Shown here piece after piece: positions 3,025 through 29,836 of a DNA stretch of 64,000 nucleotides. The stretch is from Escherichia phage JS10: sequence record EU863409; one strand, given 5' to 3'. The notes beneath the pieces were generated by a model. The model saw only the letters and a list, made by a program, of their open reading frames with translations, searched no databases and was not told the DNA's origin. The first letter of the stretch is position 1; every line of letters begins with the position of its first letter. Both the position numbers and the translations under genes were made by a program.

Positions 3025-4842
3025 TTATGACATCCAAGCCTTGCGCAGCTGTGGGTCGTTTCCAAGGAGCATTTCGAACTGGTCTTTCCAATCTTCAGGT
3101 AATTGAACTACATCGAATTTAGGGTCTTGAATCATTCGACGGTATTCAGCCTTCTCAAGAGAACCGAGACCTTTAATATAACGAATAGAATGTTTTGGTA
3201 GAGAGTCCTTAGCTTTGGTATAACTAGGTACATCATAGAACCATTCCTGTTCTTTACCAACCTGAGCAATGATTACAGGAGTCTTACAGAAACGAATTCG
3301 TCCCTGTTCAAACAATTCCGGCCACTGACTAAAGAAAGCTAATAACGAAGGATAAATCGAACCAGTACCATCCACATCGGCGTCAGTCATGATAGCGATA
3401 TTGCGATAGTTGGTTTTATCTGCAGGTTCACCAATAACCAGTCCAGTGATTGCACAGATATCAAACAATTCTTTGTTCTTCATGATATCGGCAGCAGTCA
3501 TACCCCAGGTATTCATAACCTTTCCGCGTAACGGATAACCACCTTGGAGGTCTTTATTACGAACTTCAATGAAAGGACCCATTGCAGAATCACCTTCCGT
3601 AAGGAATAAAGTCGTATCAGCATCTTTGCCATACATATTGGCTTTAATATGCTTATGGACCTTGGCTTTCAAAGCTTTCTTAGCAGCTTTTGTTTCGGCT
3701 GCTTTTTCAGCAGCGAGTTTACGTGCTAAAGCTGCTTCGACAATAGGCATAATCAACCCATCGACCTTAAGAATAGCCGTTGCAATTTTCTTAGCATCAA
3801 TTTGGATATGGTTACGAATCTCACCAAACGGAGAGGTCAATCGCTCTTTAGTCTGTGAATCAAAACGCATATTGCTCATATCACGAATGAACATGACCAT
3901 CGTAAGGCATTCTTTAACACGAGCCTTAGTTACTTCGATTCCTTTATATTTCTTTTTAATACCAGGCAGAAGGTGCTCACAGATATCGTCAAACACACAT
4001 TCAACGTGATGGCCGCCATTCTTAGTATGGATATTGTTTACATACGTCAGTTGACGGAACCCGTCCGGAGAAGGAGTAAATGCCATCGAAACATTATCAG
4101 TTTCTTGGATTACAAAGTCTTCACCAAATTGCTTAGCATACTTTTTAAAGTTGCCATCTACTTTTTTACCATTAAAAGTAAATTGGATATCCGGATAAAT
4201 TACGGCCAGTGTTTGAAGACGGTCTAATGTAATATCCAGATAAATTTGGGACAGACTATTTTCTTCGAAATGGTTAAAGTCTGGGGTGAATATAACCGAA
4301 GTACCCTTACCTTTAGATTTCTTAGTAGACCAACCTTTGTTTTCCATTCCATTGGAACAGTTAACAGTAATCTCATTCTCACCATCAGAGGTGATGCCTG
4401 TGAACAAAACAGAGAAGATATTAGTTAAACTACTACCAACACCGTTCATGCCGCCTGTCTTACGCTCAGCGTCATCTCCAAAGTTACCACCGGCTTTTGG
4501 AATAGTCCATGCAGCTACAGGACCCGGAATTTGTTCACCGTTTTGGTCAGTAACCATTGCTTGAGGAATACCACGGCCATTATCAGAAACTGAAACCTGA
4601 TTATTCTTAATTTGAACATCGATTTTATTTGCGAATTTAAAATTGGTACGAATAGCTTCATCGACAGAGTTATCAATGATTTCGTCAATTAATTTAACCA
4701 GTCCAGGAACATAGTTCACCTGGGTAAAATTACCAAACAGGAATCGACCGTGAGCTTCATTAGCACTTGAGCCAATATACATCCCACTACGTTTTTTGAT
4801 ATGTTCAATGTCGGACAGTACTTTAATTTCATTCTTAATCAT
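3025..4842 (-). CDS. 39: DNA topoisomerase II large (ATPase) subunit, fused 39/60 type
   Basis: 605 aa; GyrB-like ATPase N-terminus; T4 synteny upstream of rIIA. Confidence 0.85.
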   Translation of the reverse strand: MIKNEIKVLSDIEHIKKRSGMYIGSSANEAHGRFLFGNFTQVNYVPGLVKLIDEIIDNSVDEAIRTNFKFANKIDVQIKNNQVSVSDNGRGIPQAMVTDQNGEQIPGPVAAWTIPKAGGNFGDDAERKTGGMNGVGSSLTNIFSVLFTGITSDGENEITVNCSNGMENKGWSTKKSKGKGTSVIFTPDFNHFEENSLSQIYLDITLDRLQTLAVIYPDIQFTFNGKKVDGNFKKYAKQFGEDFVIQETDNVSMAFTPSPDGFRQLTYVNNIHTKNGGHHVECVFDDICEHLLPGIKKKYKGIEVTKARVKECLTMVMFIRDMSNMRFDSQTKERLTSPFGEIRNHIQIDAKKIATAILKVDGLIMPIVEAALARKLAAEKAAETKAAKKALKAKVHKHIKANMYGKDADTTLFLTEGDSAMGPFIEVRNKDLQGGYPLRGKVMNTWGMTAADIMKNKELFDICAITGLVIGEPADKTNYRNIAIMTDADVDGTGSIYPSLLAFFSQWPELFEQGRIRFCKTPVIIAQVGKEQEWFYDVPSYTKAKDSLPKHSIRYIKGLGSLEKAEYRRMIQDPKFDVVQLPEDWKDQFEMLLGNDPQLRKAWMS

Positions 4843-4891: not shown

Positions 4892-4912
4892 TAAAAGGGC
4901 CGAAGCCCTTAA
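4892..4912 (-). terminator. UUCG-loop hairpin
   Basis: agggc-cgaa-gccct with flanking A/T runs. Confidence 0.45.
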
Positions 4913-5169
4913 TCAAATCGAATGGTCGACTTTTTAAAGAATAACCCAGAACAAACTGTTCCTTCAACCCTTTTACCTGTCGGCCCTACAGCAATAAAAC
5001 CTGTACGCTGGAAATCATCTTCAGAACAACCAAATAGGTTGTATCCTGTGATTTGGATTTGTTCGTAGCCATTTGCATCCAATACACGGGTGGCATTATC
5101 AGCATCAGTACAACCAGCCAACGAAACTGCTAGTACAAGAGCCGCAATAGAACGATTAACATATTTCAT
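4909..5169 (-). CDS. putative lipoprotein
   Basis: 86 aa; signal peptide with lipobox LAGC. Confidence 0.55.
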   Translation of the reverse strand: MKYVNRSIAALVLAVSLAGCTDADNATRVLDANGYEQIQITGYNLFGCSEDDFQRTGFIAVGPTGKRVEGTVCSGLFFKKSTIRFD

Positions 5170-16975: not shown

Positions 16976-17416
16976 TTAACCTCGGTTCATAAAGGCATTA
17001 AAAATCTGGTCGTCAATTGAATAAACCGGAGCTTCCAGAATTTTCAACAGACTGTTTTTGATATACTTGCTAGGGATATCCATATTAACAGCATCATTCA
17101 ATTCGTTGTCCGGGAGGATGTCTTTAAATTCGAATCCATCAAACTCAACCTTGTCAGGAATACCTTCAGCGAAAAAATAAACCAATTGATGCATTGCATT
17201 ACACGAAAATAATTTAGACCTTACCGCAATAAGTTCTTGCCAATGGTTTAATTCTCTGTTAAGAAGTTTATGGGCCATTGTAATTCTATCATCACTATCA
17301 ACAAGAAAATAGCCCAGGTACTGGTGGTCGTCGCTCCAAAACATCCTGTATGCTTGTGCATTTGGATTTTTGCAACGGAGCTTTTTGATAACCAAATTTC
17401 TGTTAATCTTATTCAC
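16976..17416 (-). CDS. hypothetical protein
   Basis: 146-aa ORF. Confidence 0.5.
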   Translation of the reverse strand: MNKINRNLVIKKLRCKNPNAQAYRMFWSDDHQYLGYFLVDSDDRITMAHKLLNRELNHWQELIAVRSKLFSCNAMHQLVYFFAEGIPDKVEFDGFEFKDILPDNELNDAVNMDIPSKYIKNSLLKILEAPVYSIDDQIFNAFMNRG

Positions 17417-17702
17417 CTGTCACCTCTTTAACAATATTTTTGTTATCGAAATTAGCATCACAGTACAGAACATAGTTATACTGCATAACACCGCTGGAAG
17501 CCAATTGGTCGGATACTTCTTTAACCATATCAGGACGGTCCCGTTTAGTGATATTCATGATATCAGCGTAAATCTGATGTTCAACTGATTCTTGGTCTGC
17601 AGTCATAGACCATTCACAAAGGTCTTTATCCAATCCAGCCGTAACTGGAGCTGTACCACATGATGCTACTGTAAGGATTGCTGCGATTAATAACTTTTTC
17701 AT
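17409..17702 (-). CDS. secreted/periplasmic protein, Spackle-like by size and position
   Basis: 97 aa with N-terminal signal peptide MKKLLIAAILTVASCG; T4 sp is about 97 aa in the 61-41 interval. Confidence 0.45.
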   Translation of the reverse strand: MKKLLIAAILTVASCGTAPVTAGLDKDLCEWSMTADQESVEHQIYADIMNITKRDRPDMVKEVSDQLASSGVMQYNYVLYCDANFDNKNIVKEVTGE

Positions 17703-23456: not shown

Positions 23457-23989
23457 TTATTCACCTTATTTTCAATATATTCGTTCAGACGTTTTAATTC
23501 TACCATATCAACATTAAGCAAATTATTATGGCCGTCATGATTTAAGATTTTAAACACGTTTTCAAAACATGTTTCGTATTGCCGGATAGTTAGGTTGAAC
23601 TCATCTTTGGTTAATTTAATAAGGTCGTCTTCGAAGTCTTCGTCTAATGGATTACGAGTTAAAATAACCTCGATAACGTTAAATTCGGATTTAAACCCTT
23701 TCCAATCTTCCAGTTCTACATAAGGGTCCATTTCACCACGAAGGAATCCTGAGTAAACAATATTACTTGGATAACCACGGTCAAGGATATAAACGAAATT
23801 AGGGTCTAAAAACTTATACAGAGTTTCAACTAAAGCCTTATCGTTATCGGTTCCTAATGAAATACACTTGCCATTAATCTTTTTAGGAAAATCAATAAGG
23901 CGGTATTTCTTATTGGATAACAGATTTTTAATTAAAGTGGACTTCCCGGAATTATCCGGGCCGTCTATAACAATGATTTTTGGATTCAT
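23453..23989 (-). CDS. P-loop kinase, thymidylate-kinase-like
   Basis: 178 aa; Walker A IVIDGPDNSGKST typical of Tmk/dNK-type kinases. Confidence 0.55.
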   Translation of the reverse strand: MNPKIIVIDGPDNSGKSTLIKNLLSNKKYRLIDFPKKINGKCISLGTDNDKALVETLYKFLDPNFVYILDRGYPSNIVYSGFLRGEMDPYVELEDWKGFKSEFNVIEVILTRNPLDEDFEDDLIKLTKDEFNLTIRQYETCFENVFKILNHDGHNNLLNVDMVELKRLNEYIENKVNK

Positions 23990-24384
23990 GGATGATAGGC
24001 CTTATAACTATCAAGAGTTCCTTCACGAACCATTTCTTTAAAGTGGTCAGGACGGATTGCTCGGTCATCGATGATAAAAGTATAACTCGGCTTGTGTGTA
24101 AGCAAATTGTGATATTTCAATCCAATTTTTTCAAGGTTCTTAACCAATGCAGGAACTACTTCAACCAAGATTCGACCTGGGCCACATGAAGTCATGCCAC
24201 GGGCGGTGAACAATGTAATCTCGTACCCTTCATCATAAAGCTTATTAATCATGGACACCATTTCGGTGTCCGGTTTAAAGTTCTCATAATCACGGTCATG
24301 GTTCCAAATCGTGATTGTGTTATCGATATCAAAACATAAGTGTGGCTTATTTTCTACTCGATGCGACATTAAATTTTCTTCCAT
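23986..24384 (-). CDS. HAD-superfamily phosphatase
   Basis: 132 aa; motif I CFDIDNTIT (DxDxT). Confidence 0.6.
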   Translation of the reverse strand: MEENLMSHRVENKPHLCFDIDNTITIWNHDRDYENFKPDTEMVSMINKLYDEGYEITLFTARGMTSCGPGRILVEVVPALVKNLEKIGLKYHNLLTHKPSYTFIIDDRAIRPDHFKEMVREGTLDSYKAYHP

Positions 24385-26042
24385 TGTTTGTGGAGTTCAG
24401 TAGAACCTGTAGGTTTATATTTTACACCAGTTTCCTGGTCAAGCAAAACCCACTTATCAGGACAACGAGTAATAATTTGGGCCGTAATAGGGTCACGAAC
24501 TTCATCGACAAATTCACCTGTAATAAGCTTACGCTTACGAGGATGCCGCTTCAGCAGCACACTCAGTTGGTACAAACCGTTATAATAAGCACCCAGAGCT
24601 TTCAGAGGGTTATTCTTAAAGTAACCTGCCAGAGCCATCCAAATAACAGCAATCCAGAGCTTGTGCTTAAATGTGCACATAGGGATATCGTCTAAAGGCA
24701 TAACCTTTTCGATATCAACGAATACACGAGTTCCGTTACGAGTTAATCCACCCCATAGAGGGTCTGAGTTAAATTTGTCATAGCCATCGATAGAATAAAG
24801 CACCTTAGCTTCATCATAAATCGCAGGGCCTTTAGAACTATTACCGAAATAACCGCGTGGGTCGATGATTTTAATATCACCTTCGTCCGACAGCATAATA
24901 TTACTGTAGTGCGGGTCACCATGAATAAGTTGGTACGGTTCTTTATGTTCAGACAGAATTTCTAGTGCATGGCGGAGAAGTTTTTCAGGGTCGCCTACTT
25001 TGAAATCGTTAACATGGGTAATGCCTTGTGGAGCAAAGCCTTCAATCAATCCGGCAATAGAAGCATTACGAATAAGGACCTTGTCCAATACTTCTTTCTT
25101 AACATCAGAATACCATTGCTCATCGGACGGGTTATCGATAGTTCCACCGAATGAACGTAATGCACTAATGACCTTATAAACCATGAGGACTTTAGTTTCT
25201 TTGGACATAAACCGGTAGGCATCTGCCATGGTCCGACCAAAGATACGTTCCATTTTAATGAATTCGCCTGGAGAAAAGTCTACAATGCTAGGAACGAATT
25301 CAGAATCAATAGAATTATACCAATTGATTTCTTTAGATTGAATTTCTTTACCTAAATCGTTAGTTGGTACTTTAATAGCCAGATTCTCGGTGAATTCTAA
25401 TTTATTAAATTCACGGTTAATTTCAGATTCTTCATGGGCCTTAGCCAGTTTCAATTTGTCACCGACATCAACTACAAAGTCCAGTTTACGTTCAGTCAAA
25501 TAGACCATTGAATCCAGGTTATCAGCAAGGTCTTCACCGTAATTAGAACGGTCGAAACCTGTCCAATTAGCCACCTGATACAAACCAACTACACCGCCAC
25601 CGGTACCAATTTCACGTAAGTACGGTTCTTCAAATGTAAAACGACAATCGGTTCCATAAGTATAGCAGTAGTCGTTACCCCACTCAACTTTATGACCTTC
25701 AGGAATGATGTCACACCAGTTAAACAAGACATTATGACCAATGATATCTTCGGCAATGCAATCGATAGCATGAGCTGAACCATTAGCAACATCAACGTTA
25801 CGAATAGTGAATTTAGGCTTATCACCAGTAATCATGTTAATGGATTTAATATAGCCTTTAACGAGGTCGTTAAATTTGCTGTGAATAACCAGAATAATTT
25901 CATCTGATTGGTTACTATACAAATCATACAAATGCTTTAATACTGTATGTTGTTTGTAGTTAACCAATACCTTCGGGATTTCGTTAGTAATTGGGTACAA
26001 ACGTGAGCCAAGACCTGCGCCTAAAATAACAACCTTTTTCAT
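24369..26042 (-). CDS. bifunctional sugar-1-phosphate nucleotidyltransferase / APH-fold sugar kinase
   Basis: N-terminus VVILGAGLGSRL (NTP-transferase G-x-G-x-R); C-terminus HGDPHYSNIML...IIDPRGYFG (APH/choline-kinase catalytic loop); start trimmed to ATG 26040-26042 with GAGGAA RBS. Confidence 0.65.
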   Translation of the reverse strand: MKKVVILGAGLGSRLYPITNEIPKVLVNYKQHTVLKHLYDLYSNQSDEIILVIHSKFNDLVKGYIKSINMITGDKPKFTIRNVDVANGSAHAIDCIAEDIIGHNVLFNWCDIIPEGHKVEWGNDYCYTYGTDCRFTFEEPYLREIGTGGGVVGLYQVANWTGFDRSNYGEDLADNLDSMVYLTERKLDFVVDVGDKLKLAKAHEESEINREFNKLEFTENLAIKVPTNDLGKEIQSKEINWYNSIDSEFVPSIVDFSPGEFIKMERIFGRTMADAYRFMSKETKVLMVYKVISALRSFGGTIDNPSDEQWYSDVKKEVLDKVLIRNASIAGLIEGFAPQGITHVNDFKVGDPEKLLRHALEILSEHKEPYQLIHGDPHYSNIMLSDEGDIKIIDPRGYFGNSSKGPAIYDEAKVLYSIDGYDKFNSDPLWGGLTRNGTRVFVDIEKVMPLDDIPMCTFKHKLWIAVIWMALAGYFKNNPLKALGAYYNGLYQLSVLLKRHPRKRKLITGEFVDEVRDPITAQIITRCPDKWVLLDQETGVKYKPTGSTELHKQWKKI

Positions 26043-26102
26043 TATCTGTTCCTCAAGTGAATGTAGGTACATTATACACTATTTTTAATAAATTTCTATT
26101 GC

Positions 26103-26603
26103 TTAAATCTTATCTTTACCGTATTCCATGCACTGTTCTACTGCAGCAGGCACTTTGGACTTAAGCTTGTTGATTTGTTTCTTATAATCACGAGCCTTAT
26201 CGAAGCTCTCGGTTTCAAGCATTTCGTAATAACGGGCCTCGTGGACGGAAATCTGTAGATTGATATGGTTTACACACATAGAATACAGTTTCTGCTTTTT
26301 GTACAAATCATCTTGGCGCTTCATTTCTGCCTGGTGTTTGGCTAGTACCGCTTCACGCTTAGACTCTTGTTCACGTTGGAATTCGATTTCCCTTTGAGCA
26401 TATTTTGCACAGTTATTACCGCATTGATTATTAGCTCGGGTATACACAAGTCCAGAACCAGCACGGAATTTCATTTCGCCGTCGAATTGTTTCTGTTCAG
26501 CTGCGATACGAGCTTTACCAACTTCATCAGCAGAAACTGCATCACCGTATTGGACTGCGCAACCTGATAGGAGCATACTCATTGCGATAATTAACTTTTT
26601 CAT
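26103..26603 (-). CDS. putative lipoprotein
   Basis: 166 aa; signal peptide with lipobox LSGC. Confidence 0.55.
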   Translation of the reverse strand: MKKLIIAMSMLLSGCAVQYGDAVSADEVGKARIAAEQKQFDGEMKFRAGSGLVYTRANNQCGNNCAKYAQREIEFQREQESKREAVLAKHQAEMKRQDDLYKKQKLYSMCVNHINLQISVHEARYYEMLETESFDKARDYKKQINKLKSKVPAAVEQCMEYGKDKI

Positions 26604-26610
26604 AATATCC

Positions 26611-26748
26611 TCAATTAAAACAGTTATACTTAATTTGTGCTATAAGAATAATCCATCCCATGATTAATGTTGGAATCATTGGAGGAATTGCCACTGCCCA
26701 ATAAACAGTAAAGGCGGCCATTATAAGAAATAAAATAATTATCTTCAT
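26611..26748 (-). CDS. small membrane protein (45 aa)
   Basis: MKIIILFLIMAAFTVYWAVAIPP...; ATGA start/stop overlap with next gene; below track cutoff. Confidence 0.4.
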   Translation of the reverse strand: MKIIILFLIMAAFTVYWAVAIPPMIPTLIMGWIILIAQIKYNCFN

Positions 26749-26981
26749 TGTTTAACGATAATGATTTGTGCGTTTGATTTACGTTCAGCGACGATAGCCC
26801 AGATTAAAGCCACTACCCAACCAATCATCGTCCACCCTAACAGGAGATTAAGGAAGAAGATTCCGACATTGCTACGAGTGCCTCGCAGAAGAGCCAGAAT
26901 CCATGGTAAAAAGTAACCAATGAACATAATAACCAGAGAACCGAATCCTAAAACACCAGCACTAACGATTAAAGCTTCCAT
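26745..26981 (-). CDS. membrane protein, Imm-like by position
   Basis: 78 aa, two hydrophobic helices; T4 imm lies between 42 and 43. Confidence 0.45.
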   Translation of the reverse strand: MEALIVSAGVLGFGSLVIMFIGYFLPWILALLRGTRSNVGIFFLNLLLGWTMIGWVVALIWAIVAERKSNAQIIIVKQ

Positions 26982-26998
26982 TATAATTTCCTCATGTA

Positions 26999-27041
26999 GT
27001 TGATAGGAAGAATAATACCACGTTCCATGTGGTATGTAAAC
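26999..27041 (-). promoter_or_regulatory. early-promoter cassette
   Basis: gttgataggaagaataata...gtaaac. Confidence 0.5.
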
Positions 27042-27043
27042 AC

Positions 27044-29755
27044 TTAAAAGTCGAACATGTCAAATAATGTTGCTTTTTTCTCGTAGTCGATTTTAGCAGA
27101 CTCAGTAAAACCAGTCAGTGGTTTGATAAAGGTCTTTTGGAACAGTACGTTGTAGTCCATCCAACGGAGGACTTGGTCACGAATCTGAATCGGAAGTTCA
27201 ATACCTGACGGCCATGCCATACAAGCTTCACCGAACGGGTTGCCTTCTTTAAGTGGCAGTACATATACCTTTTCACCATCAACGATACGAGGCATAGTCA
27301 AATCACCAGCAGAAGCACGCATGTAAGCTAAGCAACCTTTGATGTGGTACGGGCATTTAGAACCAGGGAAACCGCCTTCATTATATTTCTCAATGTTGTT
27401 AGCACTGGATACTGCAGCAATGCTTACATAGTCTAGTTCGTTAAATTCCTTATTAAACTGTTTGAAATATTCTTGCAAAGAAGCCTCGCCTTCTTGAAGC
27501 ATACGACGGATACATTCTTTCAGTGCTTTCTGAACCGCTTTAGGCGTACTTGATTTCTGGGTTTCGAGACCCATGATTTTCAAGTGTGGTTCGGCATAAC
27601 GAGTACCTTCCATGTCCCAAACGTTCAGTGCGTAACGTTTCTTGCCTGTCCAGAATCCACCAAGACCTTTAGAACCAAGTGGAGGACCAGCGATAGCTTC
27701 TCGGTCCATGAACATCAAGTGCTGTTTATTGTTCATGTATTCACACATCTCACGGAAGCCTGCATCAATAGCTGGTTCCATACGTTCACGTGCAAATTTA
27801 TCTAAGAAGTCAACCCAGTGGTTAGTATCACGGAATTTGTCTTCGCCTACTTTATTGATGATTGCATCAGCCTTAACATAAATGGAGTCGGTATCACCAT
27901 AGAGCACGAACTTCTGGTTTTCAGTCTTGCACACGCCATTCAGATATTCGTTAACCTTACGTTCAATCCATTGGAGGGCCATTTGACCAAACAATGTGAT
28001 TGCAGTTGCGTTCCTGAGGTCATAGTAACGGAACCATACGTTACCAAGTGCACCATAAAGGGAGTTGATAAGCAACTTACGGTTAATCTGAGCAGTCATA
28101 CCTGCGACTTCAGTGCGTTCGGCTTTGAACAACATTTCTTTTAAAGAAGATGCTGACAATTTTTTAATCTGAGCTTTGATTTCGTCAGAGAAGTCGAAAC
28201 GATAATCGATATCCAGTGGACTATCAACAGACAGATTAGGATTTTCTAATGCTTCTTTAATTAACTCACCATTACGTTGAGCTGCAAGCATATAACCTTT
28301 ATGTTCTTTACGCTGTAAGAACACCTTCGTGATTTCTGTAGGAATCACACCATCACGGTCTTTATAGTACATCATGCCGTTAGGAGAGCAACTGTAGGTG
28401 TCGCTAGGACGCGGAGCAGTTCCGGCAATATATTCATGTATCGGTGCGTTGGCGAATGTCCCTGCGATGGTCTCTGGGCTTATATTCACTTGACGAATGA
28501 TACTCGGGTACAGAGATGTAAGGTCGAAACTCATTACATATTTGTACGCGTTAGGAATAGGTTCCTTAACGAAAGCACCCGGATAAGGTTGAACCGCATG
28601 CGATTTGGCCTGAGGAATAACTTTACCCTGTTCTTTAAGGCTATTAAAGATAATAGCGTCCCAAGTCTTAATTGGACTGAACACCGACTGAATCTGCATC
28701 TTGGCATAGTAACCCATGTCCAGACTAAGAAGAATGAACTGGCGTTTCATATCAATCTGCACAACACGATATACGTCGATAATGTTATAGGAAATATATC
28801 GTTGGTGGTTCGTCTCACGTAACTTGGAGATAGGACCATCATATTTCAACTTACCTACTTTCAATTCATATTCAGAAACATAATCCAGAGAATAAGAAGG
28901 CTGGTTGGTAAAGCTGAATTTTTTATAAAGGTCGATATAATCCAGAACAGAAATGCCGAACAGTGTAATAATTTCACGAACACCGTACATATTCTCGATA
29001 ACTTTAACACGAGTCTTACGATGTGGGCTTAATCGCTTAGCAGTGTTCTCACCAAACAGATTTTTCAGACGGTTATAAACGTATGGCACGTCAAATGATT
29101 CAACGTTCCATCCAGTCAAAATCACAGGAGTTTTCTGTTGCCAGAAATTCAGATACTCAAGCATCATTTCTTCTTCAGAATTAAACGGAAGATAAACGAT
29201 TTTGTCAATGATTTCTTGTGGAACTTCGTCACCACCTTCGTCTTGGAGTTTCTCAGCGATTTTAATCGACCACTCTTCGACCGTACCATAAGGTGAAACT
29301 AAAAGGTCAAATACATAGAATTTATCATCAATCGAGTCGTAGTGAGTAATGGCATCGATAGGATGTTTAGCCTGGGCAGGTTCAGGGAATCCATCAGGAG
29401 ATGTTACCTCGATGTCGAAGTTAGCAATACGAATCTTGGAAGAATCATACTTGATTTCTTTACGATAGGTATCAGACAAATAGGCTAATTTATAGTCGTC
29501 CATACCAAGGGCTTCGAGACCCATATCGTCCATGCGCTTCATCCACTGAGAAGCATCGCGCATTGAATCGAATTCTTTCTTAACACAGCCCTTACCGTAG
29601 ATGTCAATATATTTTACGGCTTGCTCTGGGTTGGCATGCATAAACATTGTAGGCTTGTAAGGAACTTCACGACTACGTTCTTTACCATTTTTATCGATGT
29701 AACGTTCGAGAATATTATCACCGATTTGTTCGACTGTCAAATAGAATTCTTGCAT
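27044..29755 (-). CDS. 43: DNA polymerase (family B)
   Basis: starts MQEFYLTVEQIGDN as T4 gp43; YGDTDS motif; track start 29815 trimmed to ATG 29753-29755. Confidence 0.9.
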   Translation of the reverse strand: MQEFYLTVEQIGDNILERYIDKNGKERSREVPYKPTMFMHANPEQAVKYIDIYGKGCVKKEFDSMRDASQWMKRMDDMGLEALGMDDYKLAYLSDTYRKEIKYDSSKIRIANFDIEVTSPDGFPEPAQAKHPIDAITHYDSIDDKFYVFDLLVSPYGTVEEWSIKIAEKLQDEGGDEVPQEIIDKIVYLPFNSEEEMMLEYLNFWQQKTPVILTGWNVESFDVPYVYNRLKNLFGENTAKRLSPHRKTRVKVIENMYGVREIITLFGISVLDYIDLYKKFSFTNQPSYSLDYVSEYELKVGKLKYDGPISKLRETNHQRYISYNIIDVYRVVQIDMKRQFILLSLDMGYYAKMQIQSVFSPIKTWDAIIFNSLKEQGKVIPQAKSHAVQPYPGAFVKEPIPNAYKYVMSFDLTSLYPSIIRQVNISPETIAGTFANAPIHEYIAGTAPRPSDTYSCSPNGMMYYKDRDGVIPTEITKVFLQRKEHKGYMLAAQRNGELIKEALENPNLSVDSPLDIDYRFDFSDEIKAQIKKLSASSLKEMLFKAERTEVAGMTAQINRKLLINSLYGALGNVWFRYYDLRNATAITLFGQMALQWIERKVNEYLNGVCKTENQKFVLYGDTDSIYVKADAIINKVGEDKFRDTNHWVDFLDKFARERMEPAIDAGFREMCEYMNNKQHLMFMDREAIAGPPLGSKGLGGFWTGKKRYALNVWDMEGTRYAEPHLKIMGLETQKSSTPKAVQKALKECIRRMLQEGEASLQEYFKQFNKEFNELDYVSIAAVSSANNIEKYNEGGFPGSKCPYHIKGCLAYMRASAGDLTMPRIVDGEKVYVLPLKEGNPFGEACMAWPSGIELPIQIRDQVLRWMDYNVLFQKTFIKPLTGFTESAKIDYEKKATLFDMFDF

Positions 29756-29812
29756 TTCATTTCCTTTATAGACGAGTGATTGTCTTTTGTTTGTTGATGA
29801 ATAATTATACTC

Positions 29813-29836
29813 CAAAAAGGGACCGAAGTCCCTTTG
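29813..29836 (-). terminator. UUCG-loop hairpin upstream of gene 43 leader
   Basis: aaaaagggaccgaagtccctttgc. Confidence 0.5.

Follow-up and report, generated by a model that had tools for sequence, protein, structure and literature searches.

What is encoded directly downstream of the DNA polymerase gene of this T4-like phage, and do the small genes found there act together against superinfecting phages? The window analyzed here, a stretch of 64,000 nucleotides from Escherichia phage JS10 (EU863409), carries three short open reading frames at this place, which a first-pass annotation made from the sequence had described as a lipoprotein and two small membrane proteins. All three lie on the minus strand and were present with the lengths and positions first given for them, tightly packed, conserved, and each matching a phage protein family. 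In the direction of transcription, they are imm (26745..26981), encoding a 78-aa inner-membrane superinfection immunity protein orthologous to T4 Imm; a gene for a 45-aa Y02C-family micro-protein, a helical-hairpin membrane peptide (26611..26748; PF26865/phrog_3610); and a gene for a 166-aa lipoprotein of phrog_1754 in the position of Imm.1 (26103..26603). The set had been called translationally coupled, and both junctions bear this out: the stop codon of imm and the start codon of the Y02C-family gene overlap as ATGA (26745..26748, minus strand), and 7 nt separate the TGA of the peptide gene from the ATG of the lipoprotein gene, where a GAGGA ribosome-binding site overlaps this TGA (26604..26613, minus strand). 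Hydropathy likewise agreed with the earlier description, with a lipoprotein signal in the 166-aa protein and two hydrophobic stretches in each of the other two. The position given earlier, before gene 43, has to be corrected, as the set is downstream (3') of gene 43 (DNA polymerase; 27044..29815, minus strand) by transcription direction, and a 62-nt spacer separates the stop of gene 43 from the start of imm. The next gene after the lipoprotein gene encodes a 567-aa protein and starts at 26072 (minus strand).

The three open reading frames are genes and not chance frames, because they match phage protein families and because purifying selection acts on the peptide (dN/dS 0.04–0.34) and on both halves of the lipoprotein (dN/dS 0.03–0.17 within types). 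The three-gene stretch is 98% identical in nucleotide sequence to Escherichia phage JS98, and likewise to about 50 other Dhakavirus records. JS98 annotates the genes as imm, orf44 (a 36-aa version), and orf43, and an uncharacterized protein of phage JS10 is 100% identical to the 166-aa lipoprotein. By their family matches, the lipoprotein and the Y02C peptide are members of catalogued, conserved families of T4-like phages. The locus is therefore the already-annotated imm locus of a JS98/JS10-like T4-type coliphage, real but ordinary. It adds little, since its genes are annotated in JS98 and relatives, and imm, the only one of known function, is textbook material. We consider it probable that this imm locus of a JS98/JS10-type Dhakavirus is a three-gene envelope-targeted cassette downstream of gene 43, apparently with an early-type promoter of its own.

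The sequence identifies the 78-aa protein as Imm, truly orthologous to its T4 namesake. It matched Pfam PF14373 (Imm_superinfect; cut-off 27.9 bits) with a score of 65.1 bits (E=5.1e-18; profile positions 2–42 of 42) and phrog_1039, "immunity to superinfection" (3e-32), and it aligned with T4 Imm over the full length (43% identity, 81 columns, E=2e-22). The two proteins share two hydrophobic stretches (residues 2–33 and 39–67 in the window Imm), the residues R33 and W50, and the neighborhood downstream of gene 43, whereas the C-terminus of the window Imm is 5 residues shorter. In the window, imm is the first gene after gene 43, while in T4 it is the second. R33 and W50 are invariant among the Imm proteins of eight T4-like genera, Dhakavirus among them, in our alignments. 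T4 Imm resides in the inner membrane and blocks translocation of the superinfecting genome by binding the tape-measure protein gp29, a fragment of which co-purifies with it, and the substitutions R33A and W50A weaken its exclusion (bioRxiv 10.64898/2026.03.06.709160). Because both residues are kept, we infer that the window Imm works as T4 Imm does; by homology, it would block genome translocation. The earlier reading of the locus as equivalent to the imm region of T4 was right: the 78-aa protein is Imm, the lipoprotein falls into phrog_1754 together with T4 Imm.1, and a homolog of the peptide follows imm in T4. What it missed is the identity of the 78-aa protein with Imm and the presence of the small open reading frame in T4 as well.

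A T4-early-type promoter-like site lies in the 62-nt spacer after gene 43, at 27012..27040 (minus strand; GTTTACA, 17 nt, TG-extended TATTAT). It agrees with the consensus at 10 of 12 positions and carries the TG extension, a consensus match only, and promoter-like sites in the region were not more numerous than in shuffled sequences. Of 10 representative T4-like loci, 8 have the pattern GTTTAC-N17-TAnnAT ahead of the first module gene, among them the pair relocated in Mosigvirus and T4 imm.1. Inside the promoter spacer is a hairpin (27015..27035, minus strand) with a 7-bp stem, ATACCAC-ATGGAAC-GTGGTAT, and a T-rich tail behind it; its folding energy is −7.8 kcal/mol (z = −1.8). Four other genera have hairpins in the equivalent position, with stems that differ in sequence (6–7 bp, −7.3 to −9.3 kcal/mol; the equivalent sites are those of loci L017, L018, L021, L024, and L025). 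This hairpin may be the terminator of gene 43, combined with the promoter of imm. A conserved RNA element was also considered and set aside, as the locus had no Rfam match and the spacer hairpins, aligned with MAFFT, gave no consensus structure in RNAalifold.

The 45-aa peptide matched phrog_3610 (E=2.1e-21; residues 2–45 on profile positions 4–47 of 47), and its assignment to PF26865 "Phage_T4_Y02C" comes from precomputed matches of a 98%-identical protein (P0030) and of the homologous gene of a metagenomic contig (L109). Its two hydrophobic stretches (residues 1–22 and 19–39) have Pro-Pro between them, and the conserved motif of the family reads PxMIPT..GW...LQ.KY[EN]C[FI]N. A tblastn search with the peptide returned 774 phage records, and among the matches listed, essentially all are T4-like phages of enterobacteria. 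JS98 annotates this peptide with 36 aa from an internal Met; the 45-aa start is favored because of its conservation across genera and the ATGA overlap. In T4, the homolog is a 49-aa open reading frame (NC_000866.4 26227..26376; 4228..4377 of our extracted locus L003, minus strand) that takes up the 153-nt stretch separating imm from gene 42. Its start overlaps the imm stop as ATGA, and 7 nt remain between its end and gene 42. This frame matched the 45-aa peptide with a phmmer E=4e-12 and phrog_3610 with 1.2e-25. The T4 and window peptides share the length class, the motif PxMIPT...GW...KY[EN]C[FI]N, and the overlap with the imm stop; they differ in what comes next, gene 42 in T4 and the lipoprotein gene here. 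The records of T4 (NC_000866.4 and AF158101.6), T2, and T6 carry no annotation of this frame. As a practical point, the T4 reference records thus lack a conserved 49-aa Y02C gene that fills the supposed gap between imm and gene 42.

The Y02C peptide is not tied to imm, because it has another upstream partner in Mosigvirus and Kanagawavirus, where its gene is ATGA-coupled to a SIS-isomerase gene in place of imm. Across five genera, the start of the Y02C gene overlaps as ATGA with whichever gene is upstream. Gelderlandvirus, Moonvirus, and the T4-like Klebsiella phages lack the peptide beside imm. Within Dhakavirus, Escherichia phage vB_EcoM_005 (155 kb; loci L008/L031, 4237..4247) shows a clean loss of the Y02C gene, with the lipoprotein start 9 nt after the imm stop, and the peptide is therefore dispensable, at least in this isolate or assembly. 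The word-indexed searches and the profile search for wider relatives found no fused Imm-peptide proteins. The peptide would form a small hairpin in the inner membrane, with its synthesis dependent on the gene upstream, and its role is probably independent of Imm.

The 166-aa protein begins with MKKLIIAMSMLLSGC, in which a positive n-region and a hydrophobic core are followed by the lipobox L-S-G-C, conforming to the pattern used here ([LVI][ASTVI][GAS]C). The lipid-attachment residue C15 is conserved in at least 90% of the family. The mature part is hydrophilic (GRAVY −0.73), and the N-terminal signal is the sole hydrophobic stretch. The residue at +2 is Ala, which by the E. coli rule carries no inner-membrane retention signal, and Asp at +2 occurs in none of the family members examined. 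The lipoprotein is thus predicted to be exported, lipidated, and sorted to the outer membrane, facing the periplasm; the outer-membrane location is drawn from the +2 rule alone. A lipobox was present in every positional homolog examined except that of Yersinia phage MHG19, which has a plain signal peptide and no PHROG match.

How this protein relates to T4 Imm.1 depends on the level at which the two are compared. The window lipoprotein matched phrog_1754 at 1.5e-52 (residues 1–163) and T4 Imm.1 matched the same family at 6e-43 over its full length, the profile having been built from both sub-types. The genes beside imm in seven other genera matched it at 1.7e-15 to 1e-46, and the family covers the homologs of T4, Mosigvirus, Gelderlandvirus, Moonvirus, Klebsiella phages, Gaprivervirus, and Kanagawavirus. 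DUF5481 (PF17578), the family of T4 Imm.1, scored 239 bits with T4 Imm.1 and 37 bits with the Mosigvirus homolog and gave no hit to the window lipoprotein at E up to 1. Between the window lipoprotein and T4 Imm.1, BLASTP gave E=5.8; between the mature domains, hhalign aligned 13 N-terminal columns only (probability 12%), and HMM searches in both directions gave E=0.18. T4 Imm.1 was also not among the results of a BFVD fold search with the window lipoprotein. The mature domains thus showed no significant similarity, and the lipoprotein is filed under phrog_1754 and its position and not under DUF5481. The putative link to Imm.1 is confined to shared membership in the PHROG, the location, and two sequence features, an N-terminal motif and a Cys pair. 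In concrete terms, both are lipoproteins beside imm downstream of gene 43 that match phrog_1754 at full length, both carry a G-x-VV-x-x-S-[DE]-VGK motif just past the lipid-attachment Cys, and both have a Cys pair in the C-terminal helices. The window lipoprotein differs from T4 Imm.1 (125 aa) in 40 additional residues, with a β-hairpin and a QCGNNC motif missing in T4, and it stands on the other side of imm, whereas in T4 the order is gene 43, imm.1, imm. The family is small: a profile search of 1.84 billion representative proteins found only 18 members, and word-indexed searches for wider relatives returned 11, 3, and 2 clusters. A literature search on DUF5481 found no papers. In the T4 RefSeq record, imm.1 (NP_049661.1) bears the product name "iduronate sulfatase", which none of the searches made here supported, DUF5481 being its sole match.

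An AF2 model of the lipoprotein (pLDDT 79.6) has a flexible tether, a short helix, a β-hairpin, a 70-residue helix, and two more helices, in that order. The single-sequence AF2 model of T4 Imm.1 was poor (pLDDT 61), with only the C-terminal helical region visible. We distinguish a conserved N-terminal module (residues 16–99) that contains the QCGNNC motif from a variable, helical C-terminal module (residues ~100–166). G49, G51, Y54, C110, and C158 are invariant in the family, and the mature protein would be held by two disulfides, C61–C65 and C110–C158. A function based on structure could not be assigned despite the reasonable model, as no solved or predicted structure outside the family was informative: the BFVD search returned family members only, Foldseek against the PDB returned nothing below E=1.7, and a profile search of PDB sequences returned nothing. 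Between lineages, residues 16–99 are 60–79% identical and residues 100–166 are 20–40% identical. A metagenomic contig (L107) has flanks that are 90–100% identical to the window, while the segment that encodes the C-terminal module (26110..26300, minus strand) is only 32–56% identical; in the protein, residues 16–99 are 98% identical and residues 100–166 are 25% identical. The C-terminal third of the lipoprotein is replaced as an unrelated cassette in this otherwise near-identical relative. Cultured Dhakaviruses carry one type of C-terminal module only, 91–99% identical. The pattern of exchange fits a specificity-determining domain.

The neighborhood of the lipoprotein gene was surveyed across 80 Imm-encoding viral contigs, in which a lipoprotein gene within 700 nt of imm on the same strand was counted. 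Such a gene was beside imm in 21 of 21 T4-like loci vs 2 of 59 non-T4-like Imm loci, where the two lipoproteins are unrelated proteins; pairing with imm was thus not enriched outside the T4-likes. The gene order also varies. In Dhakavirus and Gaprivervirus, imm comes first and is followed by the peptide and then the lipoprotein gene; T4, Gelderlandvirus, Moonvirus, and Klebsiella phages have the lipoprotein gene ahead of imm; and in Mosigvirus the lipoprotein-imm pair is found together next to spackle, far from gene 43. The pairing of lipoprotein and imm survives both order swap and relocation. In the Kanagawavirus Entb_45, the lipoprotein and peptide genes follow gene 43 and there is no imm within the surrounding 34 kb, so the two can exist without an adjacent Imm. 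The adjacency of lipoprotein and imm among T4-like phages may be largely inherited synteny. As a separate observation, Mosigvirus ATK47 (locus L019, 3035..4070) has a three-gene envelope "exclusion island", in which a single early-type promoter-like site is followed directly one after another by the Imm.1-like lipoprotein gene, imm, and sp, while the Y02C peptide remains near gene 43.

Other genes of the window belong to the same setting. A homolog of spackle (sp) lies at 17409..17702 (minus strand; E=7e-50 to Mosigvirus Sp), and since imm is also present, the phage has both classical T-even exclusion genes, 9 kb apart. The signal sequence of the window Sp ends in VASC, which is lipobox-like. 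T4 Spackle (Sp, gp61.3) resembles the proteins studied here in that it is an early envelope exclusion protein of the same phages and adjoins the Mosigvirus lipoprotein-imm pair; it is unrelated to them and has a different target, the gp5 lysozyme (PMC7677548). The window also encodes an 86-aa predicted lipoprotein at 4909..5169 (minus strand; MKYVNRSIAALVLAVSLAGC...). The 567-aa gene next to the cassette (24369..26072, minus strand) encodes a nucleotidyltransferase plus kinase-like protein (phrog_4098) that matches homologs of the fused RB69 ORF53_52c, and downstream of it is a gene for a 132-aa HAD-like protein (23986..24384, minus strand). A sugar-nucleotide gene block that includes homologs of these two genes has been proposed for DNA arabinosylation in RB69 (PMC6024577). 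Since the window has both genes of this block, glycosylation of the phage DNA is probably of the RB69 type and not of the T4 type.

The question that is left is what the two companions of Imm do. As candidates for superinfection exclusion, the three proteins fare differently: the proposal stands for Imm by homology and draws some support for the lipoprotein from gene linkage, and the linkage of the peptide to imm is broken in two genera. Among the readings weighed, the one we put first, and hold tentatively, is that the lipoprotein would be a second envelope factor of the infected cell that accompanies Imm, with an N-terminal module that does a common job and an exchangeable C-terminal module that sets partner specificity. 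It is somewhat unlikely, in our estimate, that Imm is the sole exclusion factor and that its two companions are early envelope proteins with no relation to it, placed here by inherited gene order, which might then act in lysis timing, in envelope maintenance, or in countering host defense. The strong synteny of T4-like genomes agrees with such a placement, as do the lack of lipoprotein enrichment beside Imm outside the T4-likes (2/59, both unrelated), the occurrence of both genes away from any nearby imm in Entb_45, and the constant position of the peptide gene at the start of the DNA-modification block, represented by gene 42 in T4 and by the sugar-nucleotide genes in this phage. However, the lipoprotein was relocated together with imm in Mosigvirus and kept its adjacency despite the order swap. 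A spanin or other lysis role for the lipoprotein was rejected on its size, on the early-type promoter, and because no i-spanin is encoded next to it. Membership of a known defense system was likewise discarded, as none of the three proteins matched any family of the PADLOC models.

Cloned T4 imm alone reportedly gives exclusion, a result ascribed to Lu and Henning in 1989, so that Imm would strictly need no partner. It is quite improbable that the three proteins form one machine, in which the lipoprotein and Y02C would position or stabilize Imm at the injection site and full exclusion would need all of them. Such a machine would account for the tight packing and translational coupling of the genes, for the clustering of the T4 homologs around imm, and for the retention of the lipoprotein-imm pair through rearrangements. 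It fits poorly with a peptide whose gene, in Mosigvirus and Kanagawavirus, is distant from imm and has a SIS-isomerase gene as its coupled neighbor, and which is missing from several imm-bearing genera and one Dhakavirus, and with Entb_45, which carries the lipoprotein and peptide without a nearby imm; moreover, the tape-measure fragment co-purified with T4 Imm without other phage proteins (bioRxiv 10.64898/2026.03.06.709160). We give a similarly low probability to the lipoprotein as an independent outer-membrane exclusion factor of the kind of T5 Llp or phi80 Cor. It would then hide the receptor used by the phage itself, or render it inactive, and its C-terminal module would track receptor specificity. 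The receptor-blocking Llp of T5 and Cor of phi80/N15 are phage lipoproteins, as is predicted here, and an exclusion role of the window protein is plausible by context only: an early-type promoter-like site precedes the genes, the lipoprotein is predicted to reach the outer membrane, its modular C-terminal end is swapped as a cassette, and it has a place beside the exclusion genes imm and, in Mosigvirus, sp. There is, however, no similarity in sequence or fold past the signal peptide; the match to the Cor PHROG is confined to residues 1–18 (E=0.015), no solved lipoprotein inhibitor gave a fold match, and a module that follows the receptor sits uneasily with the single, 91–99% identical type in cultured Dhakaviruses. 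Also unlikely is a third T-even exclusion player, in which the Imm.1-family lipoprotein would act on the incoming phage in the periplasm and its C-terminal module would set which phages are excluded; Y02C might contribute.

Every T4-like phage that was examined and has imm encodes a lipoprotein beside it. A role of this lipoprotein in exclusion would matter somewhat if true, the mechanism of Imm having only just been worked out. The locus offers one modest lead: the lipoprotein may be an unrecognized exclusion factor with a swappable specificity module.
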